Shown: positions 1,918 to 10,592 of the stretch, in pieces
How positions within the stretch are numbered: the stretch's first letter is position 1
How the letters are laid out: every line of letters starts with the position of its first letter
Assembly (NCBI RefSeq): GCF_003334815.1
Contig: NZ_QOWO01000038.1
Length of the DNA: 34,633 nt
Source of the DNA: Escherichia coli
Lineage (GTDB): Bacteria > Pseudomonadota > Gammaproteobacteria > Enterobacterales > Enterobacteriaceae
Strand: one strand, 5' to 3'
Program-made: the position numbers and the translations under genes
Notes under the pieces: model-generated
What the model was told of the DNA's origin: nothing
Database searches by the model: none
The model's input: the letters and a program-made list of their open reading frames with translations, nothing else

Positions 1918-4317
1918 ATGAAGCTAACCGATGCGGATAATGCCGCCGATGGCATTTTTTTCCCCGCCCTTGAGCAAAATATGATGGGTGCGGTGTTAAT
2001 TAACGAAAATGATGAAGTGATGTTTTTCAACCCCGCCGCAGAGAAGCTCTGGGGATACAAACGTGAAGAAGTCATTGGCAATAACATTGATATGCTGATT
2101 CCGCGGGATTTGCGTCCTGCGCATCCTGAATACATTCGTCACAACCGTGAAGGCGGTAAAGCGCGTGTTGAGGGGATGAGTCGGGAGCTGCAGCTGGAGA
2201 AAAAAGACGGCAGTAAAATCTGGACCCGTTTTGCGCTATCGAAAGTGAGCGCCGAGGGGAAAGTTTATTACCTGGCGCTGGTACGGGATGCCAGCGTAGA
2301 AATGGCGCAAAAAGAACAGACCCGACAATTGATTATTGCCGTTGACCATCTCGACCGACCGGTGATTGTCCTCGATCCGGAACGCCATATTGTGCAGTGC
2401 AATCGCGCATTTACCGAAATGTTTGGTTACTGCATTAGCGAAGCCAGCGGTATGCAGCCCGATACACTCCTGAACATTCCTGAATTCCCTGCCGATAACC
2501 GCATTCGTTTACAACAGTTGCTATGGAAAACCGCCCGCGATCAGGACGAATTTCTGCTGTTGACGCGCACCGGTGAAAAAATCTGGATTAAAGCCTCTAT
2601 CAGCCCGGTTTATGACGTGCTCGCGCATCTGCAGAACCTGGTAATGACTTTCTCGGATATCACCGAAGAACGGCAGATTCGCCAGCTTGAAGGCAATATT
2701 CTCGCCGCCATGTGCAGCAGCCCGCCATTTCATGAAATGGGGGAAATCATTTGTCGTAACATCGAATCTGTACTCAACGAATCGCATGTTTCGCTGTTCG
2801 CACTGCGCAACGGGATGCCGATACACTGGGCGTCATCTTCCCACGGTGCAGAAATTCAAAATGCGCAAAGCTGGTCAGCGACCATTCGTCAGCGTGATGG
2901 CGCGCCTGCGGGGATCCTGCAAATTAAAACCTCGTCAGGAGCAGAAACCAGCGCCTTTATCGAACGCGTGGCAGATATCAGCCAGCATATGGCCGCGCTG
3001 GCGCTGGAACAGGAAAAAAGCCGTCAGCATATTGAACAACTCATCCAATTTGATCCGATGACCGGTCTGCCAAATCGCAATAACCTGCACAATTACCTCG
3101 ATGACCTGGTCGACAAAGCCGTCTCTCCCGTGGTGTATCTCATCGGTGTTGACCATATTCAGGATGTGATTGATAGCCTTGGCTATGCGTGGGCCGATCA
3201 GGCATTGCTGGAAGTGGTCAATCGCTTTCGTGAAAAACTCAAACCGGATCAGTATCTCTGTCGTATCGAAGGTACGCAGTTTGTCCTCGTGAGCCTCGAA
3301 AACGACGTCAGTAACATTACCCAAATCGCCGATGAGCTACGGAATGTGGTCAGCAAGCCGATAATGATTGACGATAAACCCTTCCCGCTTACCTTGAGTA
3401 TTGGCATCAGCTACGACCTGGGTAAAAACCGCGATTACTTGCTCTCCACTGCTCACAATGCAATGGATTATATTCGCAAGAATGGCGGTAACGGCTGGCA
3501 GTTCTTCAGCCCGGCGATGAACGAAATGGTAAAAGAGCGTTTGGTTTTAGGCGCAGCGCTGAAAGAAGCGATTAGCAATAACCAACTGAAACTGGTTTAC
3601 CAGCCGCAAATCTTCGCAGAAACGGGTGAACTGTACGGCATCGAAGCCCTTGCTCGCTGGCACGATCCCCTGCATGGTCATGTGCCCCCTTCACGGTTTA
3701 TTCCTCTCGCAGAAGAGATTGGTGAAATCGAAAATATTGGGCGCTGGGTCATCGCGGAAGCTTGCCGTCAGTTAGCAGAATGGCGTAGCCAGAATATTCA
3801 TATCCCGGCGTTATCCGTGAACTTGTCGGCGCTGCACTTTCGCAGTAATCAACTGCCTAATCAGGTGTCTGATGCAATGCACGCCTGGGGTATTGACGGC
3901 CACCAGCTGACGGTAGAAATCACGGAAAGCATGATGATGGAACACGATACCGAAATCTTTAAGCGCATTCAGATCCTGCGTGATATGGGCGTGGGCTTAT
4001 CGGTAGATGATTTTGGTACGGGCTTTTCCGGATTATCCCGCTTAGTCAGTCTTCCGGTAACGGAAATCAAAATTGACAAAAGTTTTGTCGATCGTTGTCT
4101 GACCGAAAAACGCATCCTTGCCTTACTTGAAGCCATTACCAGCATTGGGCAAAGCCTCAATTTAACCGTCGTGGCGGAAGGCGTCGAAACCAAAGAGCAA
4201 TTTGAGATGCTACGCAAGATCCACTGTCGCGTTATTCAGGGATATTTCTTTTCCCGCCCCCTACCCGCCGAAGAAATTCCAGGCTGGATGAGCAGCGTGT
4301 TACCGCTGAAAATCTGA
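1918..4317 (+). CDS. dosP: Haem-PAS oxygen-sensing c-di-GMP phosphodiesterase (PAS-PAS-GGDEF-EAL)
   Basis: ORF-track frame 1894-4317; start placed at ATG 1918 (MKLTDADNAADG...) giving 799 aa. EAL-domain motifs in the C-terminal half; recognised as E. coli DosP (YddU). Confidence 0.93.
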   Translation: MKLTDADNAADGIFFPALEQNMMGAVLINENDEVMFFNPAAEKLWGYKREEVIGNNIDMLIPRDLRPAHPEYIRHNREGGKARVEGMSRELQLEKKDGSKIWTRFALSKVSAEGKVYYLALVRDASVEMAQKEQTRQLIIAVDHLDRPVIVLDPERHIVQCNRAFTEMFGYCISEASGMQPDTLLNIPEFPADNRIRLQQLLWKTARDQDEFLLLTRTGEKIWIKASISPVYDVLAHLQNLVMTFSDITEERQIRQLEGNILAAMCSSPPFHEMGEIICRNIESVLNESHVSLFALRNGMPIHWASSSHGAEIQNAQSWSATIRQRDGAPAGILQIKTSSGAETSAFIERVADISQHMAALALEQEKSRQHIEQLIQFDPMTGLPNRNNLHNYLDDLVDKAVSPVVYLIGVDHIQDVIDSLGYAWADQALLEVVNRFREKLKPDQYLCRIEGTQFVLVSLENDVSNITQIADELRNVVSKPIMIDDKPFPLTLSIGISYDLGKNRDYLLSTAHNAMDYIRKNGGNGWQFFSPAMNEMVKERLVLGAALKEAISNNQLKLVYQPQIFAETGELYGIEALARWHDPLHGHVPPSRFIPLAEEIGEIENIGRWVIAEACRQLAEWRSQNIHIPALSVNLSALHFRSNQLPNQVSDAMHAWGIDGHQLTVEITESMMMEHDTEIFKRIQILRDMGVGLSVDDFGTGFSGLSRLVSLPVTEIKIDKSFVDRCLTEKRILALLEAITSIGQSLNLTVVAEGVETKEQFEMLRKIHCRVIQGYFFSRPLPAEEIPGWMSSVLPLKI

Positions 4318-4330
4318 CAAATTCCTCTCG

Positions 4331-4348
4331 CCCGCACTCGCGGGTTTT
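4331..4348 (+). terminator. Short GC-rich hairpin (CCCGC-ACTC-GCGGG) followed by TTTT; candidate weak intrinsic terminator after dosP
   Basis: 5-bp stem and T-tract read directly, 14 nt after the dosP stop. Confidence 0.35.
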
Positions 4349-4426
4349 CATTTAACGTGACACTGTCACTTAAATACTGTGATTTCAGCTACGATTCCGG
4401 GAGATTCCTTCCTTAACTTCCCCTCT

Positions 4427-4453
4427 TGCACCAAAACTGCACTACGCTGCACA
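4427..4453 (+). promoter_or_regulatory. Candidate NtrC (enhancer-binding protein) sites: three TGCAC repeats
   Basis: TGCACCAAAACTGCACTACGCTGCACA resembles TGCACC-type NtrC half-sites and lies about 70 bp upstream of a sigma-54-like element. Confidence 0.3.
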
Positions 4454-4514
4454 AATGTTGATCAAAAGTTAAAAAATATAACTTTAAGCCAGCATTCTGG
4501 CGCTTATCCCGGCA

Positions 4515-4530
4515 TGGCATGAGATCTGCA
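4515..4530 (+). promoter_or_regulatory. Sigma-54 (-24/-12) promoter candidate for the ddp operon
   Basis: TGGCAT-N5-CTGCA matches the sigma-54 consensus TGGCAC-N5-TTGCA, with GG and GC correctly spaced; about 45 nt upstream of the ddpX start. Confidence 0.5.
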
Positions 4531-4574
4531 TAAGCGGAAAGCGCAGCAATTTTTGTCTTATACAGGAACCGTTT

Positions 4575-5156
4575 ATGTCGGATACCACCGAACTGGTTGA
4601 TTTAGCCGTAATCTTCCCTGATCTGGAGATCGAATTGAAATACGCCTGCGCTGATAACATCACAGGTAAAGCTATTTATCAGCAAGCGCGTTGTCTGTTA
4701 CACAAGGATGCGATTACCGCGCTGGCGAAAAGTATCAGCATCGCCCAGCTGTCAGGGTTACAACTGGTGATTTACGATGCGTATCGCCCACAACAAGCAC
4801 AGGCGATGTTGTGGCAAGCCTGCCCAGACCCGCAATATGTTGTTGATGTGACGGTCGGTTCTAATCACAGCCGTGGCACGGCGATCGACCTGACGCTTCG
4901 TGATGAGCACGGGAACATCCTCGATATGGGCGCAGGGTTCGATGAAATGCACGAGCGCTCCCATGCCTATCACCCTTCCGTCCCGCCCGCCGCTCAGCGC
5001 AATCGGCTGTTGCTGAATGCGATAATGACTGGTGGCGGTTTTGTCGGTATCTCCAGCGAATGGTGGCACTTCGAATTACCCCAGGCAGCGAGTTACCCTC
5101 TGCTCGCTGATCAATTCTCTTGTTTTATATCCCCTGGCACACAGCACGTCAGTTAA
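4575..5156 (+). CDS. ddpX: D-alanyl-D-alanine dipeptidase (VanX homologue)
   Basis: 193-aa ORF; recognised as E. coli DdpX; SxHxxGxAxD-type zinc-peptidase motif region present (SNHSRGTAIDL). Confidence 0.93.
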   Translation: MSDTTELVDLAVIFPDLEIELKYACADNITGKAIYQQARCLLHKDAITALAKSISIAQLSGLQLVIYDAYRPQQAQAMLWQACPDPQYVVDVTVGSNHSRGTAIDLTLRDEHGNILDMGAGFDEMHERSHAYHPSVPPAAQRNRLLLNAIMTGGGFVGISSEWWHFELPQAASYPLLADQFSCFISPGTQHVS

Positions 5157-5169
5157 TCAGGAAACTGTC

Positions 5170-6720
5170 ATGAAGAGATCGATATCGTTTCGTCCCACAT
5201 TGCTCGCGCTCGTCCTTGCCACAAATTTCCCGGTTGCGCACGCCGCCGTACCAAAAGATATGCTGGTGATTGGTAAGGCCGCCGATCCACAAACCCTCGA
5301 CCCGGCGGTAACAATAGATAATAACGACTGGACAGTGACCTACCCGTCTTATCAGCGGCTGGTTCAGTACAAAACGGACGGTGATAAAGGCTCAACCGAC
5401 GTTGAAGGCGATCTGGCAAGTAGCTGGAAAGCGTCTGACGATCAAAAAGAGTGGACGTTCACCCTGAAAGATAATGCTAAATTTGCCGATGGCACACCTG
5501 TCACTGCCGAAGCAGTAAAACTTTCTTTTGAGCGGCTACTAAAAATCGGCCAGGGGCCAGCAGAAGCATTTCCCAAAGATTTAAAGATTGATGCTCCCGA
5601 CGAACATACGGTGAAGTTTACCCTTAGCCAACCATTCGCACCGTTCCTCTACACGCTGGCGAATGACGGTGCATCCATTATCAATCCGGCGGTCTTAAAG
5701 GAACATGCAGCGGATGATGCTCGCGGCTTCCTCGCGCAAAATACCGCCGGTTCCGGACCATTTATGCTGAAAAGCTGGCAAAAAGGTCAGCAATTAGTTC
5801 TGGTGCCAAATCCGCATTACCCAGGCAATAAACCGAACTTCAAACGGGTATCGGTAAAAATTATTGGTGAAAGTGCCTCCCGTCGCCTGCAGCTCTCCCG
5901 TGGCGACATTGACATTGCCGATGCGCTGCCGGTGGATCAACTCAACGCCCTGAAGCAGGAAAATAAAGTCAATGTGGCAGAGTATCCGTCACTGCGCGTT
6001 ACCTATCTGTATCTGAATAACAGCAAAGCGCCTCTTAATCAGGCGGATCTGCGTCGGGCCATTTCCTGGTCTACCGATTATCAGGGCATGGTTAACGGCA
6101 TTCTGAGTGGTAACGGAAAACAGATGCGCGGCCCGATTCCGGAAGGCATGTGGGGCTACGATGCGACGGCAATGCAATACAACCATGACGAAACGAAAGC
6201 CAAAGCCGAATGGGATAAAGTGACGAGCAAACCCACCAGCCTGACGTTTCTCTACTCCGATAACGATCCGAACTGGGAGCCTATTGCTCTGGCGACACAA
6301 TCCAGTCTCAACAAGCTGGGCATCATTGTGAAGCTGGAAAAGCTGGCGAACGCCACCATGCGCGACAGAGTGGGTAAAGGTGATTACGACATTGCGATTG
6401 GCAACTGGAGTCCGGATTTTGCCGACCCGTATATGTTTATGAATTACTGGTTTGAGTCAGACAAAAAAGGTCTGCCGGGTAACCGCTCGTTCTATGAAAA
6501 CAGTGAGGTCGATAAGTTACTGCGCAATGCGCTTGCGACCACCGACCAGACGCAGCGTACCCGGGACTACCAGCAGGCACAGAAAATCGTCATTGATGAC
6601 GCTGCTTATGTGTACCTGTTCCAGAAAAACTACCAACTGGCGATGAACAAAGAGGTGAAAGGCTTTGTGTTCAATCCCATGCTGGAACAGGTCTTCAATA
6701 TCAATACCATGAGTAAATAA
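5170..6720 (+). CDS. ddpA: Periplasmic dipeptide-binding protein of ABC transporter (family 5 substrate-binding protein)
   Basis: ORF-track frame 5032-6720; start placed at ATG 5170 (MKRSISFRPTLLALVLATNFPVAHA, a signal peptide). The upstream in-frame extension overlaps ddpX and is rejected. Confidence 0.9.
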   Translation: MKRSISFRPTLLALVLATNFPVAHAAVPKDMLVIGKAADPQTLDPAVTIDNNDWTVTYPSYQRLVQYKTDGDKGSTDVEGDLASSWKASDDQKEWTFTLKDNAKFADGTPVTAEAVKLSFERLLKIGQGPAEAFPKDLKIDAPDEHTVKFTLSQPFAPFLYTLANDGASIINPAVLKEHAADDARGFLAQNTAGSGPFMLKSWQKGQQLVLVPNPHYPGNKPNFKRVSVKIIGESASRRLQLSRGDIDIADALPVDQLNALKQENKVNVAEYPSLRVTYLYLNNSKAPLNQADLRRAISWSTDYQGMVNGILSGNGKQMRGPIPEGMWGYDATAMQYNHDETKAKAEWDKVTSKPTSLTFLYSDNDPNWEPIALATQSSLNKLGIIVKLEKLANATMRDRVGKGDYDIAIGNWSPDFADPYMFMNYWFESDKKGLPGNRSFYENSEVDKLLRNALATTDQTQRTRDYQQAQKIVIDDAAYVYLFQKNYQLAMNKEVKGFVFNPMLEQVFNINTMSK

Positions 6721-6721
6721 C

Positions 6722-7744
6722 GTGACCTTCTGGAGTATTTTACGCCAACGCTGCTGGGGGCTGGTGCTCGTGGTGGCGGGCGTCTGCGTGATTACGTTTA
6801 TTATCTCGCATCTGATCCCTGGTGATCCGGCGCGGTTACTGGCGGGTGACCGCGCCAGCGATGCTATCGTGGAAAATATTCGCCAGCAACTGGGACTGGA
6901 CCAGCCACTGTATGTACAGTTTTACCGCTACGTCAGCGACCTGTTTCATGGTGACCTGGGAACATCCATTCGTACCGGGCGTCCGGTGCTGGAAGAGTTG
7001 CGTATATTTTTCCCGGCGACGCTGGAGCTGGCTTTTGGTGCCCTGCTGCTGGCACTCCTGATTGGCATCCCGCTGGGCATACTCTCTGCAGTCTGGCGAA
7101 ATCGCTGGCTGGATCATCTGGTGCGAATAATGGCCATTACCGGAATCTCCACACCTGCGTTCTGGCTTGGGCTGGGCGTCATTGTGCTGTTTTATGGTCA
7201 TCTGCAAATTCTTCCCGGCGGCGGAAGGCTTGATGACTGGCTGGATCCACCAACGCACGTTACCGGCTTTTATCTGCTCGATGCGCTGCTTGAAGGCAAC
7301 GGTGAAGTCTTCTTCAATGCGTTGCAACATCTCATCTTACCGGCATTAACGCTGGCGTTCGTTCACCTGGGAATTGTCGCTCGCCAGATCCGCTCAGCGA
7401 TGCTGGAACAATTGAGTGAAGACTACATTCGTACCGCCCGGGCCAGCGGCTTGCCCGGCTGGTATATCGTTTTATGTTATGCGCTACCCAATGCGTTGAT
7501 CCCATCGATTACCGTATTGGGTTTGGCGCTGGGCGATTTGTTGTATGGCGCAGTGCTCACCGAAACCGTTTTTGCCTGGCCCGGAATGGGTGCATGGGTA
7601 GTAACATCAATACAGGCGCTCGACTTCCCGGCAGTGATGGGCTTTGCCGTCGTGGTTTCATTTGCTTATGTGCTGGTCAACCTGGTGGTGGATTTGCTCT
7701 ATTTGTGGATTGATCCGCGTATCGGACGTGGAGGTGGTGAATGA
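6722..7744 (+). CDS. ddpB: ABC transporter permease (DppB/OppB family)
   Basis: 340-aa ORF, GTG start 1 nt after the ddpA stop; multi-pass hydrophobic protein. Confidence 0.9.
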   Translation: MTFWSILRQRCWGLVLVVAGVCVITFIISHLIPGDPARLLAGDRASDAIVENIRQQLGLDQPLYVQFYRYVSDLFHGDLGTSIRTGRPVLEELRIFFPATLELAFGALLLALLIGIPLGILSAVWRNRWLDHLVRIMAITGISTPAFWLGLGVIVLFYGHLQILPGGGRLDDWLDPPTHVTGFYLLDALLEGNGEVFFNALQHLILPALTLAFVHLGIVARQIRSAMLEQLSEDYIRTARASGLPGWYIVLCYALPNALIPSITVLGLALGDLLYGAVLTETVFAWPGMGAWVVTSIQALDFPAVMGFAVVVSFAYVLVNLVVDLLYLWIDPRIGRGGGE

Positions 7745-8637
7745 TGCTAAGCGAGGAAACGTCCGCCGTACGCCCACAAAAACAAACGCGATTTAACGGT
7801 GCAAAACTGGTATGGATGCTGAAAGGCAGTCCGCTCACCGTGACCAGCGCAGTCATCATTGTATTAATGCTATTGATGATGATTTTTTCACCGTGGCTGG
7901 CGACGCATGATCCCAACGCCATTGATTTAACCGCCCGCCTTTTGCCGCCTTCTGCGGCGCACTGGTTTGGCACCGATGAAGTGGGACGCGATCTGTTTAG
8001 CCGCGTACTGGTCGGCAGTCAGCAATCAATTCTCGCCGGATTAGTCGTGGTTGCCATTGCGGGTATGATTGGTTCGCTACTCGGATGTCTATCCGGTGTG
8101 CTTGGTGGACGCGCAGACGCCATCATCATGCGCATCATGGACATTATGCTGTCGATTCCTTCGTTGGTACTGACAATGGCACTGGCTGCCGCTCTCGGGC
8201 CGAGTTTGTTTAACGCCATGCTGGCTATTGCTATTGTGCGAATTCCCTTTTATGTGCGCCTGGCGCGGGGGCAAGCATTAGTTGTACGCCAGTATACCTA
8301 TGTTCAGGCGGCGAAAACCTTTGGCGCGTCTCGTTGGCATCTGATCAACTGGCATATTTTACGTAACTCCCTACCGCCGCTGATCGTGCAGGCATCGCTG
8401 GATATCGGTAGCGCGATTTTAATGGCCGCCACGTTGGGATTTATTGGCCTGGGTGCTCAACAACCGAGTGCTGAATGGGGCGCGATGGTAGCAAATGGTC
8501 GCAACTATGTACTCGATCAGTGGTGGTATTGCGCATTTCCGGGGGCAGCGATTTTGCTTACCGCCGTCGGGTTTAATCTCTTTGGTGATGGTATTCGCGA
8601 TCTGCTTGACCCGAAAGCAGGAGGAAAGCAGTCATGA
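7741..8637 (+). CDS. ddpC: ABC transporter permease (DppC/OppC family)
   Basis: 298-aa ORF; start overlaps the ddpB stop (ATGA), suggesting translational coupling. Confidence 0.9.
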   Translation: MMLSEETSAVRPQKQTRFNGAKLVWMLKGSPLTVTSAVIIVLMLLMMIFSPWLATHDPNAIDLTARLLPPSAAHWFGTDEVGRDLFSRVLVGSQQSILAGLVVVAIAGMIGSLLGCLSGVLGGRADAIIMRIMDIMLSIPSLVLTMALAAALGPSLFNAMLAIAIVRIPFYVRLARGQALVVRQYTYVQAAKTFGASRWHLINWHILRNSLPPLIVQASLDIGSAILMAATLGFIGLGAQQPSAEWGAMVANGRNYVLDQWWYCAFPGAAILLTAVGFNLFGDGIRDLLDPKAGGKQS

Positions 8638-9620
8638 CCCAACCCGTTCTGGACATTCAACAACTGCATTTGAGTTTCCCCGGTTTTAACGGTGATGTTC
8701 ACGCGCTCAACAATGTGTCCTTGCAGATTAACCGCGGTGAAATTGTCGGTCTGGTGGGAGAATCCGGCTCAGGTAAATCAGTCACCGCAATGCTGATTAT
8801 GCGTCTGCTACCGACGGGCAGTTATTGCGTACATCGGGGGCAGATTTCCCTGCTGGGAGAAGATGTTCTTAACGCGCGGGAAAAACAGCTTCGTCAGTGG
8901 CGCGGCGCACGAGTGGCGATGATCTTTCAGGAACCGATGACCGCCCTCAATCCGACACGTCGAATAGGTCTTCAGATGATGGACGTGATCCGCCATCATC
9001 AACCAATAAGTCGTCGGGAAGCCAGAGCTAAAGCGATTGACCTGCTGGAAGAGATGCAAATCCCGGATGCCGTGGAAGTTATGTCGCGCTATCCGTTTGA
9101 GCTTTCAGGTGGTATGCGCCAGCGGGTAATGATTGCGCTGGCATTCTCCTGCGAGCCGCAATTGATTATTGCCGACGAACCGACTACGGCGCTGGACGTC
9201 ACGGTGCAGTTGCAGGTACTGCGTTTGCTTAAACATAAAGCCCGCGCCAGTGGAACTGCGGTTCTGTTCATCAGCCATGATATGGCCGTGGTGTCGCAAC
9301 TGTGCGATAGCGTTTACGTGATGTATGTCGGAAGCGTAATTGAAAGCGGCGTGACGGCAGACGTTATCCATCATCCCCGGCATCCGTATACCATTGGTTT
9401 GCTGCAATGCGCACCAGAACATGGAGTACCACGCCAGCTATTACCCGCCATTCCAGGGACGGTACCAAACCTCACCCATTTGCCTGACGGCTGCGCTTTT
9501 CGCGATCGTTGCTATGCGGCAGGTGCACAGTGTGAAAACGTCCCGGCGCTGACAGCGTGTGGTGACAACAACCAGCGCTGTGCCTGTTGGTATCCGCAGC
9601 AGGAGGTTATAAGTGTCTGA
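8634..9620 (+). CDS. ddpD: ABC transporter ATP-binding protein
   Basis: 328-aa ORF; Walker A (GESGSGKS) and LSGGMRQR signature visible; start overlaps the ddpC stop. Confidence 0.92.
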   Translation: MTQPVLDIQQLHLSFPGFNGDVHALNNVSLQINRGEIVGLVGESGSGKSVTAMLIMRLLPTGSYCVHRGQISLLGEDVLNAREKQLRQWRGARVAMIFQEPMTALNPTRRIGLQMMDVIRHHQPISRREARAKAIDLLEEMQIPDAVEVMSRYPFELSGGMRQRVMIALAFSCEPQLIIADEPTTALDVTVQLQVLRLLKHKARASGTAVLFISHDMAVVSQLCDSVYVMYVGSVIESGVTADVIHHPRHPYTIGLLQCAPEHGVPRQLLPAIPGTVPNLTHLPDGCAFRDRCYAAGAQCENVPALTACGDNNQRCACWYPQQEVISV

Positions 9621-10539
9621 CACGTTATTAACGTTACGCGACGTCCATATCAATTTCCCGGCCCGTAAAAACTGGCTTGGTAAAACTACGGAACATGTTC
9701 ATGCCATTAATGGTATTGATTTACAGATCCGCCGTGGTGAAACCTTAGGGATCGTCGGCGAGTCAGGCTGCGGCAAAAGCACCCTCGCACAGCTTTTAAT
9801 GGGTATGCTGCAACCGAGCCACGGGCAGTACATCCGTTCTGGCTCACAACGCATTATGCAGATGGTGTTTCAGGACCCGCTCTCTTCGCTTAATCCGCGC
9901 TTACCGGTGTGGCGCATCATCACAGAACCGCTCTGGATAGCTAAGCGTAGTAGTGAACAACAGCGGCGAGCGTTGGCAGAGGAGTTGGCTGTGCAGGTGG
10001 GTATTCGTCCGGAGTATCTCGACCGCCTGCCTCATGCGTTCTCCGGCGGGCAGCGGCAACGTATCGCCATTGCCAGAGCACTCTCTTCGCAGCCTGACGT
10101 GATTGTGCTTGATGAGCCAACCTCTGCGCTGGATATCTCCGTTCAGGCGCAGATCCTCAATTTACTGGTAACGCTACAGGAAAATCACGGGCTGACCTAT
10201 GTGCTGATTTCACACAATGTCTCGGTGATACGTCATATGAGCGATCGGGTGGCGGTGATGTATCTCGGGCAGATTGTAGAACTGGGCGACGCGCAGCAGG
10301 TGCTGACGGCACCTGCACATCCATACACCCGATTATTGCTGGATTCCCTCCCCGCCATTGATAAACCGCTGGAGGAAGAATGGGCATTACGTAAAACGGA
10401 TCTGCCGGGAAACCGCACGTTGCCGCAAGGCTGTTTTTTCTACGAACGTTGCCCGCTGGCAACCCACGGATGTGAAGTCCGGCAATCATTAGCAATAAGG
10501 GAGGACGGACGTGAGCTCCGGTGCTGGCGGGCGCTGTAG
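9613..10539 (+). CDS. ddpF: ABC transporter ATP-binding protein
   Basis: 308-aa ORF, GTG start preceded by AGGAGG; Walker A (GESGCGKS) and FSGGQRQR signature; overlaps the ddpD end by 8 nt. Confidence 0.92.
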   Translation: MSDTLLTLRDVHINFPARKNWLGKTTEHVHAINGIDLQIRRGETLGIVGESGCGKSTLAQLLMGMLQPSHGQYIRSGSQRIMQMVFQDPLSSLNPRLPVWRIITEPLWIAKRSSEQQRRALAEELAVQVGIRPEYLDRLPHAFSGGQRQRIAIARALSSQPDVIVLDEPTSALDISVQAQILNLLVTLQENHGLTYVLISHNVSVIRHMSDRVAVMYLGQIVELGDAQQVLTAPAHPYTRLLLDSLPAIDKPLEEEWALRKTDLPGNRTLPQGCFFYERCPLATHGCEVRQSLAIREDGRELRCWRAL

Positions 10540-10544
10540 AGATG

Positions 10545-10592
10545 CTAACAACGCATCAGGCATTCACGCGCCTGACGCGTCATCCGGCAATG
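10545..10592 (-). repeat. REP-like palindromic element between convergent ddpF and osmC
   Basis: CGCATCAGGC ... GCCTGACGCG ... CATCCGGCA motifs resemble REP consensus fragments; exact boundaries uncertain. Confidence 0.35.

Follow-up and report, generated by a model that had tools for sequence, protein, structure and literature searches.

The stretch from 4427 to 4541 is, with a probability of roughly 0.9, ddpXp, the NtrC-activated, sigma-54-dependent promoter of ddpXABCDF. It lies in a 34,633-nt piece of Escherichia coli DNA, the whole of which we call the window. ddpXp is an already documented nitrogen-starvation promoter, and in that sense the finding is sound but ordinary: a reading made without any tools recovered a genuine sigma-54 promoter together with its regulatory logic, and added nothing new. 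Zimmer and colleagues reportedly placed ddp in the NtrC/sigma-54 regulon in 2000, and this assignment has been validated repeatedly since then. For those working on Ntr enhancers, on D-Ala-D-Ala or on peptidoglycan recycling there is nevertheless some modest added value, in an enhancer of direct repeats, in the loss of a regulator gene and in the absence of the whole module from about a fifth of E. coli genomes.

The ddp locus and its sigma-54 element

The window carries the E. coli region dosCP-ddpXABCDF-osmC. The gene order dosC-dosP-ddpX-ddpA-ddpB matches that of K-12 MG1655, and ddpD, ddpF and the convergent osmC follow (Table 1). The spacer between dosP and ddpX is 257 bp long and identical to that of MG1655, so that with respect to the K-12 ddpXp studied previously (Zimmer et al., 2000; Brown et al., 2014; Bonocora et al., 2015; Shimada et al., 2021) we are dealing with the same element and no sequence difference. 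A 401-nt query spanning the ddpX promoter region has matches in 5,392 of 5,426 complete E. coli genomes, and the annotation beneath these matches is dosP plus ddpX.

Table 1. Positions of the features in and around the ddpX promoter region (coordinates of the window).
Feature	Position	Strand	Sequence, basis or remark
dosP	stop at 4317		upstream neighbour of the ddpX spacer
dosP intrinsic terminator	4330..4345	+	GCCCGC-ACTC-GCGGGT then TTTTCATTT; from a terminator scan; directly after the stop codon
Probable NtrC enhancer block	4427..4464	+	TGCACCAAAACTGCACTACGCTGCACAAATGTTGATCA; half-sites, weak dyads and conservation; NtrC binding at region level only
AT-rich spacer	4453..4499	+	about 70% A+T, GC 0.275-0.30
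GTTAA just downstream of the enhancer block	4469..4473	+	invariant in 37 aligned loci
Sigma-54 (RpoN) -24/-12 element of ddpXp	4514..4530	+	ATGGCATGAGATCTGCA; matrix score and ChIP-seq identity
Predicted transcription start 4541 and 34-nt leader	4541..4574	+	ACAGGAA ribosome-binding region
ddpX, D-alanyl-D-alanine dipeptidase	4575..5156	+	first gene of the operon
ddpA-ddpF, D,D-dipeptide ABC transporter	5170..10539	+	co-transcribed with ddpX
ddpA	5170-6720	+	
ddpB	6722-7744	+	
ddpC	7741-8637	+	
ddpD	8634-9620	+	
ddpF	9613-10539	+	

The terminator behind dosP isolates ddp from read-through out of dosCP, and its stem is kept in other Escherichia clades. Between this terminator and the ddp module there is also a palindrome, GTGACAC(T/C)GTCAC at 4358-4370, which is invariant in divergent Escherichia clades and whose arms are kept even in strains that have no ddp genes. 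Judged by eye, it was rejected as a CRP, LexA or FNR site because both the spacing and the half-sites misfit. An Rfam search of 4200-4700 with permissive filters returned zero matches.

The original prediction placed a near-consensus sigma-54 element in front of ddpX, and its letters, register and coordinates are all confirmed. TGGCAT-GAGAT-CTGCA occupies 4515-4530; its GG (4516-4517) and its GC (4528-4529) stand in the canonical -24/-12 register, and TGGCATGAGATCTGCA agrees with TGGCAC-N5-TTGCA at 14 of the 16 letters, GG and GC being intact. The element has the same orientation as ddpX and ends 44 nt from it. The start at 4541 is predicted by the rule in the first table of Bonocora et al. 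(2015, PMC4591121), i.e., 19 nt past the motif centre, which is here 4522; this puts the start 34 nt before the ATG.

The scoring of the site with a sigma-54 position weight matrix, which had been proposed as a check, was carried out. A loose search for TGGCAC-N5-TTGCA with at most two mismatches had to be discarded as a test of significance, giving 6 matches in the window against 15 expected. Because the loose consensus is not enriched, we replaced it by a matrix built from 41 intergenic sites validated by ChIP-seq (Bonocora et al., 2015, PMC4591121), with ddpX left out. On this matrix ATGGCATGAGATCTGCA scores 16.1 bits, which equals the median of the 41 true sites, and ranks second among the approximately 69,000 positions of the window. 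The exact score distribution gives p of about 2e-6 per position for 16.1 bits, corresponding to approximately 0.0005 expected matches on the + strand of the spacer and 0.13 in the whole window. The best match in the window is a perfect element of 17.0 bits, CTGGCACTACCGTTGCA at 29630-29646 (+), inside narY (ORF 28619-30163). It is the intragenic ChIP-seq site IS19, sense-oriented and upstream of narW (Bonocora et al., 2015, PMC4591121).

Published experiments bear directly on the same bases. Letter for letter, ATGGCATGAGATCTGCA is the sigma-54 ChIP-seq site OS16 upstream of ddpX (FAT 10), with its peak 4-5 bp away from the centre of the motif and a start predicted 34 nt before ddpX (Bonocora et al., 2015, PMC4591121); sigma-54 thus occupies this element in vivo. 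At the time of that study the ddpX promoter was flagged in EcoCyc as 'predicted'. The ddpX promoter site was also recovered by gSELEX with RpoN holoenzyme, and in gel shifts NtrC and RpoN holoenzyme each bind a ddpX probe, a ternary complex resulting when both are present (Shimada et al., 2021, PMC8743547). The primers of that probe map to 4243-4264 and 4632-4651, so that the probe is 4243-4651 (409 bp) and NtrC binds somewhere within it. The supplement of the same paper gives the primers and no site-level NtrC motif for ddpX. In nitrogen-starved cells, an NtrC ChIP-seq peak was assigned to ddpXABCDF (Brown et al., 2014, PMC4066584). Its interval, 1561101-1561181 in U00096.2, maps to approximately 4495-4575, i.e., on the promoter itself and some 60-100 bp from the TGCAC block. 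However, the intervals of that study lie on or downstream of the promoters for nac and yeaG too, so the offset at ddpX is probably a matter of ChIP-seq resolution, which is too low for the interval to be used for placing NtrC. Published work on K-12 ddpXp gives NtrC binding at the level of the region, and our search of the accessible literature found no footprint, site-directed mutation or mapped start site for this promoter.

Nitrogen depletion raises ddpX mRNA 104.5-fold in wild type, as measured alongside strains deleted for rpoN or ntrC. The authors conclude that activation of ddpX needs both RpoN and NtrC, and values for ddpX in the mutants do not appear in their text (Shimada et al., 2021, PMC8743547). 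That ddp is under NtrC/sigma-54 control, as had been read from the DNA, is therefore correct and already known: the identity with OS16, the NtrC ChIP-seq peak, the gSELEX and gel-shift data and the 104-fold induction all support it, and the papers in question trace the NtrC assignment of ddp back to Zimmer et al. (2000). As a separate observation, ddpF was induced only 2.2-fold where ddpX was induced 104.5-fold (Shimada et al., 2021, PMC8743547). Together with an internal ddpA/ddpB promoter, this gap suggests strong polarity or separate control within the operon.

The TGCAC block as a candidate NtrC enhancer

TGCAC occurs at 4427, 4438 and 4448, always on the + strand and with steps of 11 and 10 bp, which puts the starts of the three motifs at -114, -103 and -93 relative to 4541. 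The cluster stops 63 bp before the -24 element, and its earlier description as lying about 70 bp upstream was thus a fair one. A same-strand triplet of TGCAC within 26 bp is found once in the window against 0.013 expected from dinucleotide-preserving shuffles, though the criterion was chosen post hoc.

The accepted NtrC site is a 17-bp dyad, TGCACCAnnnTGGTGCA. To calibrate the search we scanned eleven NtrC-dependent sigma-54 promoters from MG1655 for this dyad. The scan recovers the classical sites where they have been published, at glnA (-140/-108), nac (-152), glnH (-134/-121/-108) and astC (-253/-233), as well as one at glnK (-87), and it finds no dyad of at least 10/14 at argT, yeaG, gltI or potF. 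At ddpX, none of the three 17-mers that contain TGCAC is the canonical dyad TGCACCAnnnTGGTGCA, and the best of them, TGCACAAATGTTGATCA at 4448-4464 with its centre at -85, reaches 10/14. We also constructed a symmetrised matrix from 12 recovered sites; as the consensus had served to retrieve these sites, the matrix is biased towards it. The 12 known sites score 11.8-20.2 bits (leave-one-out) on this matrix, whereas the ddpX 17-mers score 6.5, -7.5 and 4.1 bits. The 17-mers at 4427-4443 (6.5 bits, centre -106) and 4448-4464 (4.1 bits) are the top two in the 409-bp gel-shift probe.

Known sites pair TGCAC with GTGCA 12 nt downstream, whereas the ddpX motifs are direct repeats, with steps of 11 and 10 bp from one TGCA core to the next in place of the 13 bp needed for a dyad. 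The earlier claim that three TGCAC motifs resemble NtrC enhancer sites was accurate as to their number, their coordinates and their match to the NtrC half-site, but since they are direct repeats with no 17-bp dyad the resemblance holds at the half-site level only. Candidate dimers centred at -106 and -85 would be 21 bp apart on one helical face, and both centres fall within the range of approximately 80-150 bp upstream in which NtrC acts.

Compared with glnAp2 and glnHp2, ddpXp is alike in its -24/-12 element, in having NtrC sites, candidate ones in the case of ddpXp, 85-140 bp upstream and in being activated by nitrogen limitation. The differences are in the sites themselves: the glnA and glnH dyads reach 11-13/14 and 13.8-20.2 bits, whereas ddpX has direct half-sites with dyads of 4-6.5 bits and lacks an IHF-like site, the IHF consensus WATCAANNNNTTR having no match with up to one mismatch in 4400-4574. 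Another comparison is with the weak-site promoters glnK, rutA, astC and yhdW, and with argT, yeaG, gltI and potF, whose dyads are degenerate or undetectable despite their dependence on NtrC. In particular astC, like ddpX, has a pair of sites separated by about 20 bp, and for astC too an input from RpoS has been reported. On the dyad matrix the ddpX sites are weaker even than those of the weak-site Ntr promoters, and they differ in being helically phased direct repeats of TGCAC. The comparisons suggest the ddp enhancer as a naturally occurring case in which NtrC works with no consensus dyad. Weaker Ntr promoters need high levels of NtrC-P and cooperative binding, and by analogy the same is probably true of ddpXp, because its sites are far from the dyad consensus.

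From these elements we propose the following sequence of events. Esigma54 would wait in a closed complex on ATGGCATGAGATCTGCA. When nitrogen becomes limiting, NtrC-P would assemble on the TGCAC block, approximately 85-114 bp upstream of the predicted start at 4541, probably in the form of two dimers of weak specificity, set on the same face of the helix, which would bring in further subunits cooperatively. NtrC-P would then meet the polymerase by looping across the AT-rich spacer without IHF, which the flexibility or curvature of such a spacer may aid. ATP hydrolysis by NtrC would open the promoter, and transcription would start near 4541. With the operon expressed, D-Ala-D-Ala would be imported and split into D-alanine, and thereby scavenged as a source of nitrogen and carbon.

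Conservation of the block and a regulator gene in other Enterobacterales

We located 80 ddpX loci in other Enterobacterales and scanned 1,500 nt upstream in each. Most of these loci have a sigma-54 element of 12-19 bits at the head of the operon. In most loci it lies 920-1,055 nt before ddpX, examples being Citrobacter, Enterobacter, Lelliottia, Franconibacter, Mixta, Brenneria, most Pantoea, Serratia and Raoultella. When only 400 nt upstream of ddpX were considered in other genera, the promoter looked specific to Escherichia. This was wrong, because in those genera an additional regulator gene stands between the promoter and ddpX.

Across 37 aligned loci of the Escherichia-Citrobacter-Enterobacter group and its relatives, the promoter cores TGGCA and TGCA are invariant in all 37, and the 38-bp block 4427-4464 is nearly so. 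Specifically, TGCACCAAA, TG.ACTA.G.TGCACA, TGTTG and GTTAA are invariant or nearly invariant, and the flanks are divergent. The middle TGCAC, however, is TGAAC in most Citrobacter and Enterobacter loci, so that the conserved unit consists of the first and third TGCAC, 21 bp apart, rather than of three repeats. In more distant genera canonical NtrC dyads are found at the equivalent position with respect to a strong sigma-54 element: TGCACCGATTTTGTGCA with 16.2 bits in locus L052, and others with 13.4 bits in Serratia, 13.3 in Brenneria, 13.1 in Pluralibacter and 11.5 in Raoultella. This comparative support counts as independent of the gel-shift and ChIP experiments. The comparison strongly supports both the block as a functional upstream element of the sigma-54 promoter and NtrC as the ancestral activator. 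For the E. coli bases themselves we infer NtrC binding, and the enhancer role of the block is probable from its position and conservation rather than from mapping.

The layout outside Escherichia is well illustrated by Enterobacter cloacae, where the sigma-54 element ATGGCACGCATCCTGCA (17.7 bits) is preceded, approximately 60 bp upstream, by TGCACCAAAAGTGAACTACGCTGCACAAATGTTGTTCA, which is plainly homologous to E. coli 4427-4464. Between this promoter and ddpX lies a gene for a 284-aa protein of the MurR/RpiR family (locus L095, 9134-9988). Further downstream come the same transporter genes, then osmC, bdm, sra and maeA. In a Pfam search the regulator has an RpiR-type HTH (HTH_6) only, and no SIS domain was detected. 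It matches the NCBIfam model SapR with 397 bits, and as the curated cut-off is 500 we refer to it simply as a MurR/RpiR-family protein. A MurR/RpiR-like gene is present at the equivalent position in most of the loci L005-L082, whereas blastn finds no match to the regulator gene in the 5,426 E. coli genomes.

The operons of Citrobacter, Enterobacter and other Enterobacterales have a homologous block, a homologous sigma-54 element and the syntenic neighbours osmC-bdm-sra-maeA. In these operons the promoter precedes the regulator gene and stands about 920-970 nt from ddpX, whereas Escherichia is without that gene and has its promoter 44 nt from ddpX. The 3' part of the E. coli ddpX leader can be aligned with the final codons of the regulator gene in Citrobacter. 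Since the arrangement with the regulator is widespread, its loss in Escherichia is the parsimonious explanation, and two further loci (L040 and L075) look like independent losses. All this suggests that E. coli has simplified the control of its ddp operon. We can then sketch a history, which we hold tentatively and would put at a little short of even odds: an ancestral NtrC/sigma-54 operon began with a MurR/RpiR-type gene, and its deletion in Escherichia joined the promoter directly to ddpX, leaving only general nitrogen control, through an enhancer that works by phased TGCAC half-sites and fires only at high NtrC-P. A literature search, which was not exhaustive, found no paper stating either the loss of the regulator or the idea of a half-site enhancer.

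Alternative readings and variation of the ddp region

Even with a real sigma-54 promoter, the TGCAC block could be the operator of some other protein, for example Nac or the MurR/RpiR-like regulator that this promoter drives in other Enterobacterales; NtrC would then act from another site or from solution. Such an operator would account for the failure of the block in the canonical NtrC dyad test and for the co-occurrence of block and regulator gene in most genera. In addition, an inverted repeat, TGCAC-N5-GTGCA, can be made out in the first element; it falls 2 bp short of the length of an NtrC site and is perfect in one Escherichia locus (L004). However, Escherichia keeps the block almost unchanged without the regulator (0 of 5,426 genomes matched), the block contains the only NtrC-like matches inside a probe that NtrC shifts, and its distance from the promoter is typical of NtrC. 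The canonical NtrC dyads that distant genera have at the equivalent position also argue for NtrC rather than another protein, and we consider the other-protein operator unlikely.

Also unlikely is that physiological expression of ddp depends chiefly on a sigma-S or sigma-70 promoter within the spacer, under stationary-phase control, with sigma-54 in a secondary role. RpoS-dependent induction of DdpX in stationary phase was reportedly seen by Lessard and colleagues in 1998. In stationary-phase cells of O157:H7 EDL933 published values of RpoS dependence are 39-fold for ddpX and 31-fold for ddpA, which is not explained by the sigma-54 promoter alone. The RpoS effect may nevertheless be indirect, and a consensus scan of 4200-4700 for -35 and -10 elements spaced by 16-18 nt gives no match. 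The published RpoD gSELEX likewise has no promoter upstream of ddpX and lists only the internal one at ddpA/ddpB, which bears out the earlier remark that no strong sigma-70 promoter was seen between the candidate promoter and ddpX, and RpoN and NtrC have been credited with the 104-fold response to nitrogen depletion (Shimada et al., 2021, PMC8743547). Least probable, in our view, is that the TGCAC cluster is a second, weak sigma-54 site, CTTGCACCAAAACTGCA at 4425-4441, instead of or besides an activator site. This match has 12.9 bits and is the fifth best in the window, multiple bands were reported in gel shifts with the holoenzyme (Shimada et al., 2021, PMC8743547), and some of the ChIP-validated sites (potF, ygfT) also have TG for GG. 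On the other hand, the T replaces the first G of the near-invariant GG, about one match at 12.9 bits is expected by chance in the window, and ChIP-seq gives a single site centred on 4514-4530. The would-be -12 TGCA of this match is TGAA in Citrobacter and Enterobacter, so that the match is not conserved as a sigma-54 site, and a start at approximately 4452 would be without an upstream enhancer.

A second sigma-54-like element does occur in Enterobacter and Lelliottia, where ATTGCAT(T/G)AA(C/A)TTTGC(A/T), with 11.8-14.7 bits and again TG for GG, is located downstream of the block, 46 nt before the main promoter (L095 9015-9031; L028 515-531). E. coli has no counterpart of it at that place. The repeat block also varies in copy number. 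In E. coli GmM062 (L097 166-223) a 29-bp tandem duplication, ACTGCACTACGCTGCACAAATGTTGATCA, brings the number of TGCAC motifs to five, and an IS1 abuts the dosP terminator in this strain, while Huaxiibacter chinensis (L038) has an extra TGCACTACGC unit.

Within E. coli the ddp module as a whole is polymorphic, being present in some strains and missing from others. Of the 5,426 complete genomes, 4,275 have the promoter block and about 21% are without it; in 4080 of 4276 E. coli records its identity is at least 99%. In strain 317, the part of the window from 4394 to 10550, i.e., the enhancer, the promoter and ddpXABCDF, is replaced by 69 unrelated nucleotides that link dosP to osmC. In ATCC 25922 the match to the window likewise stops at about 4393.
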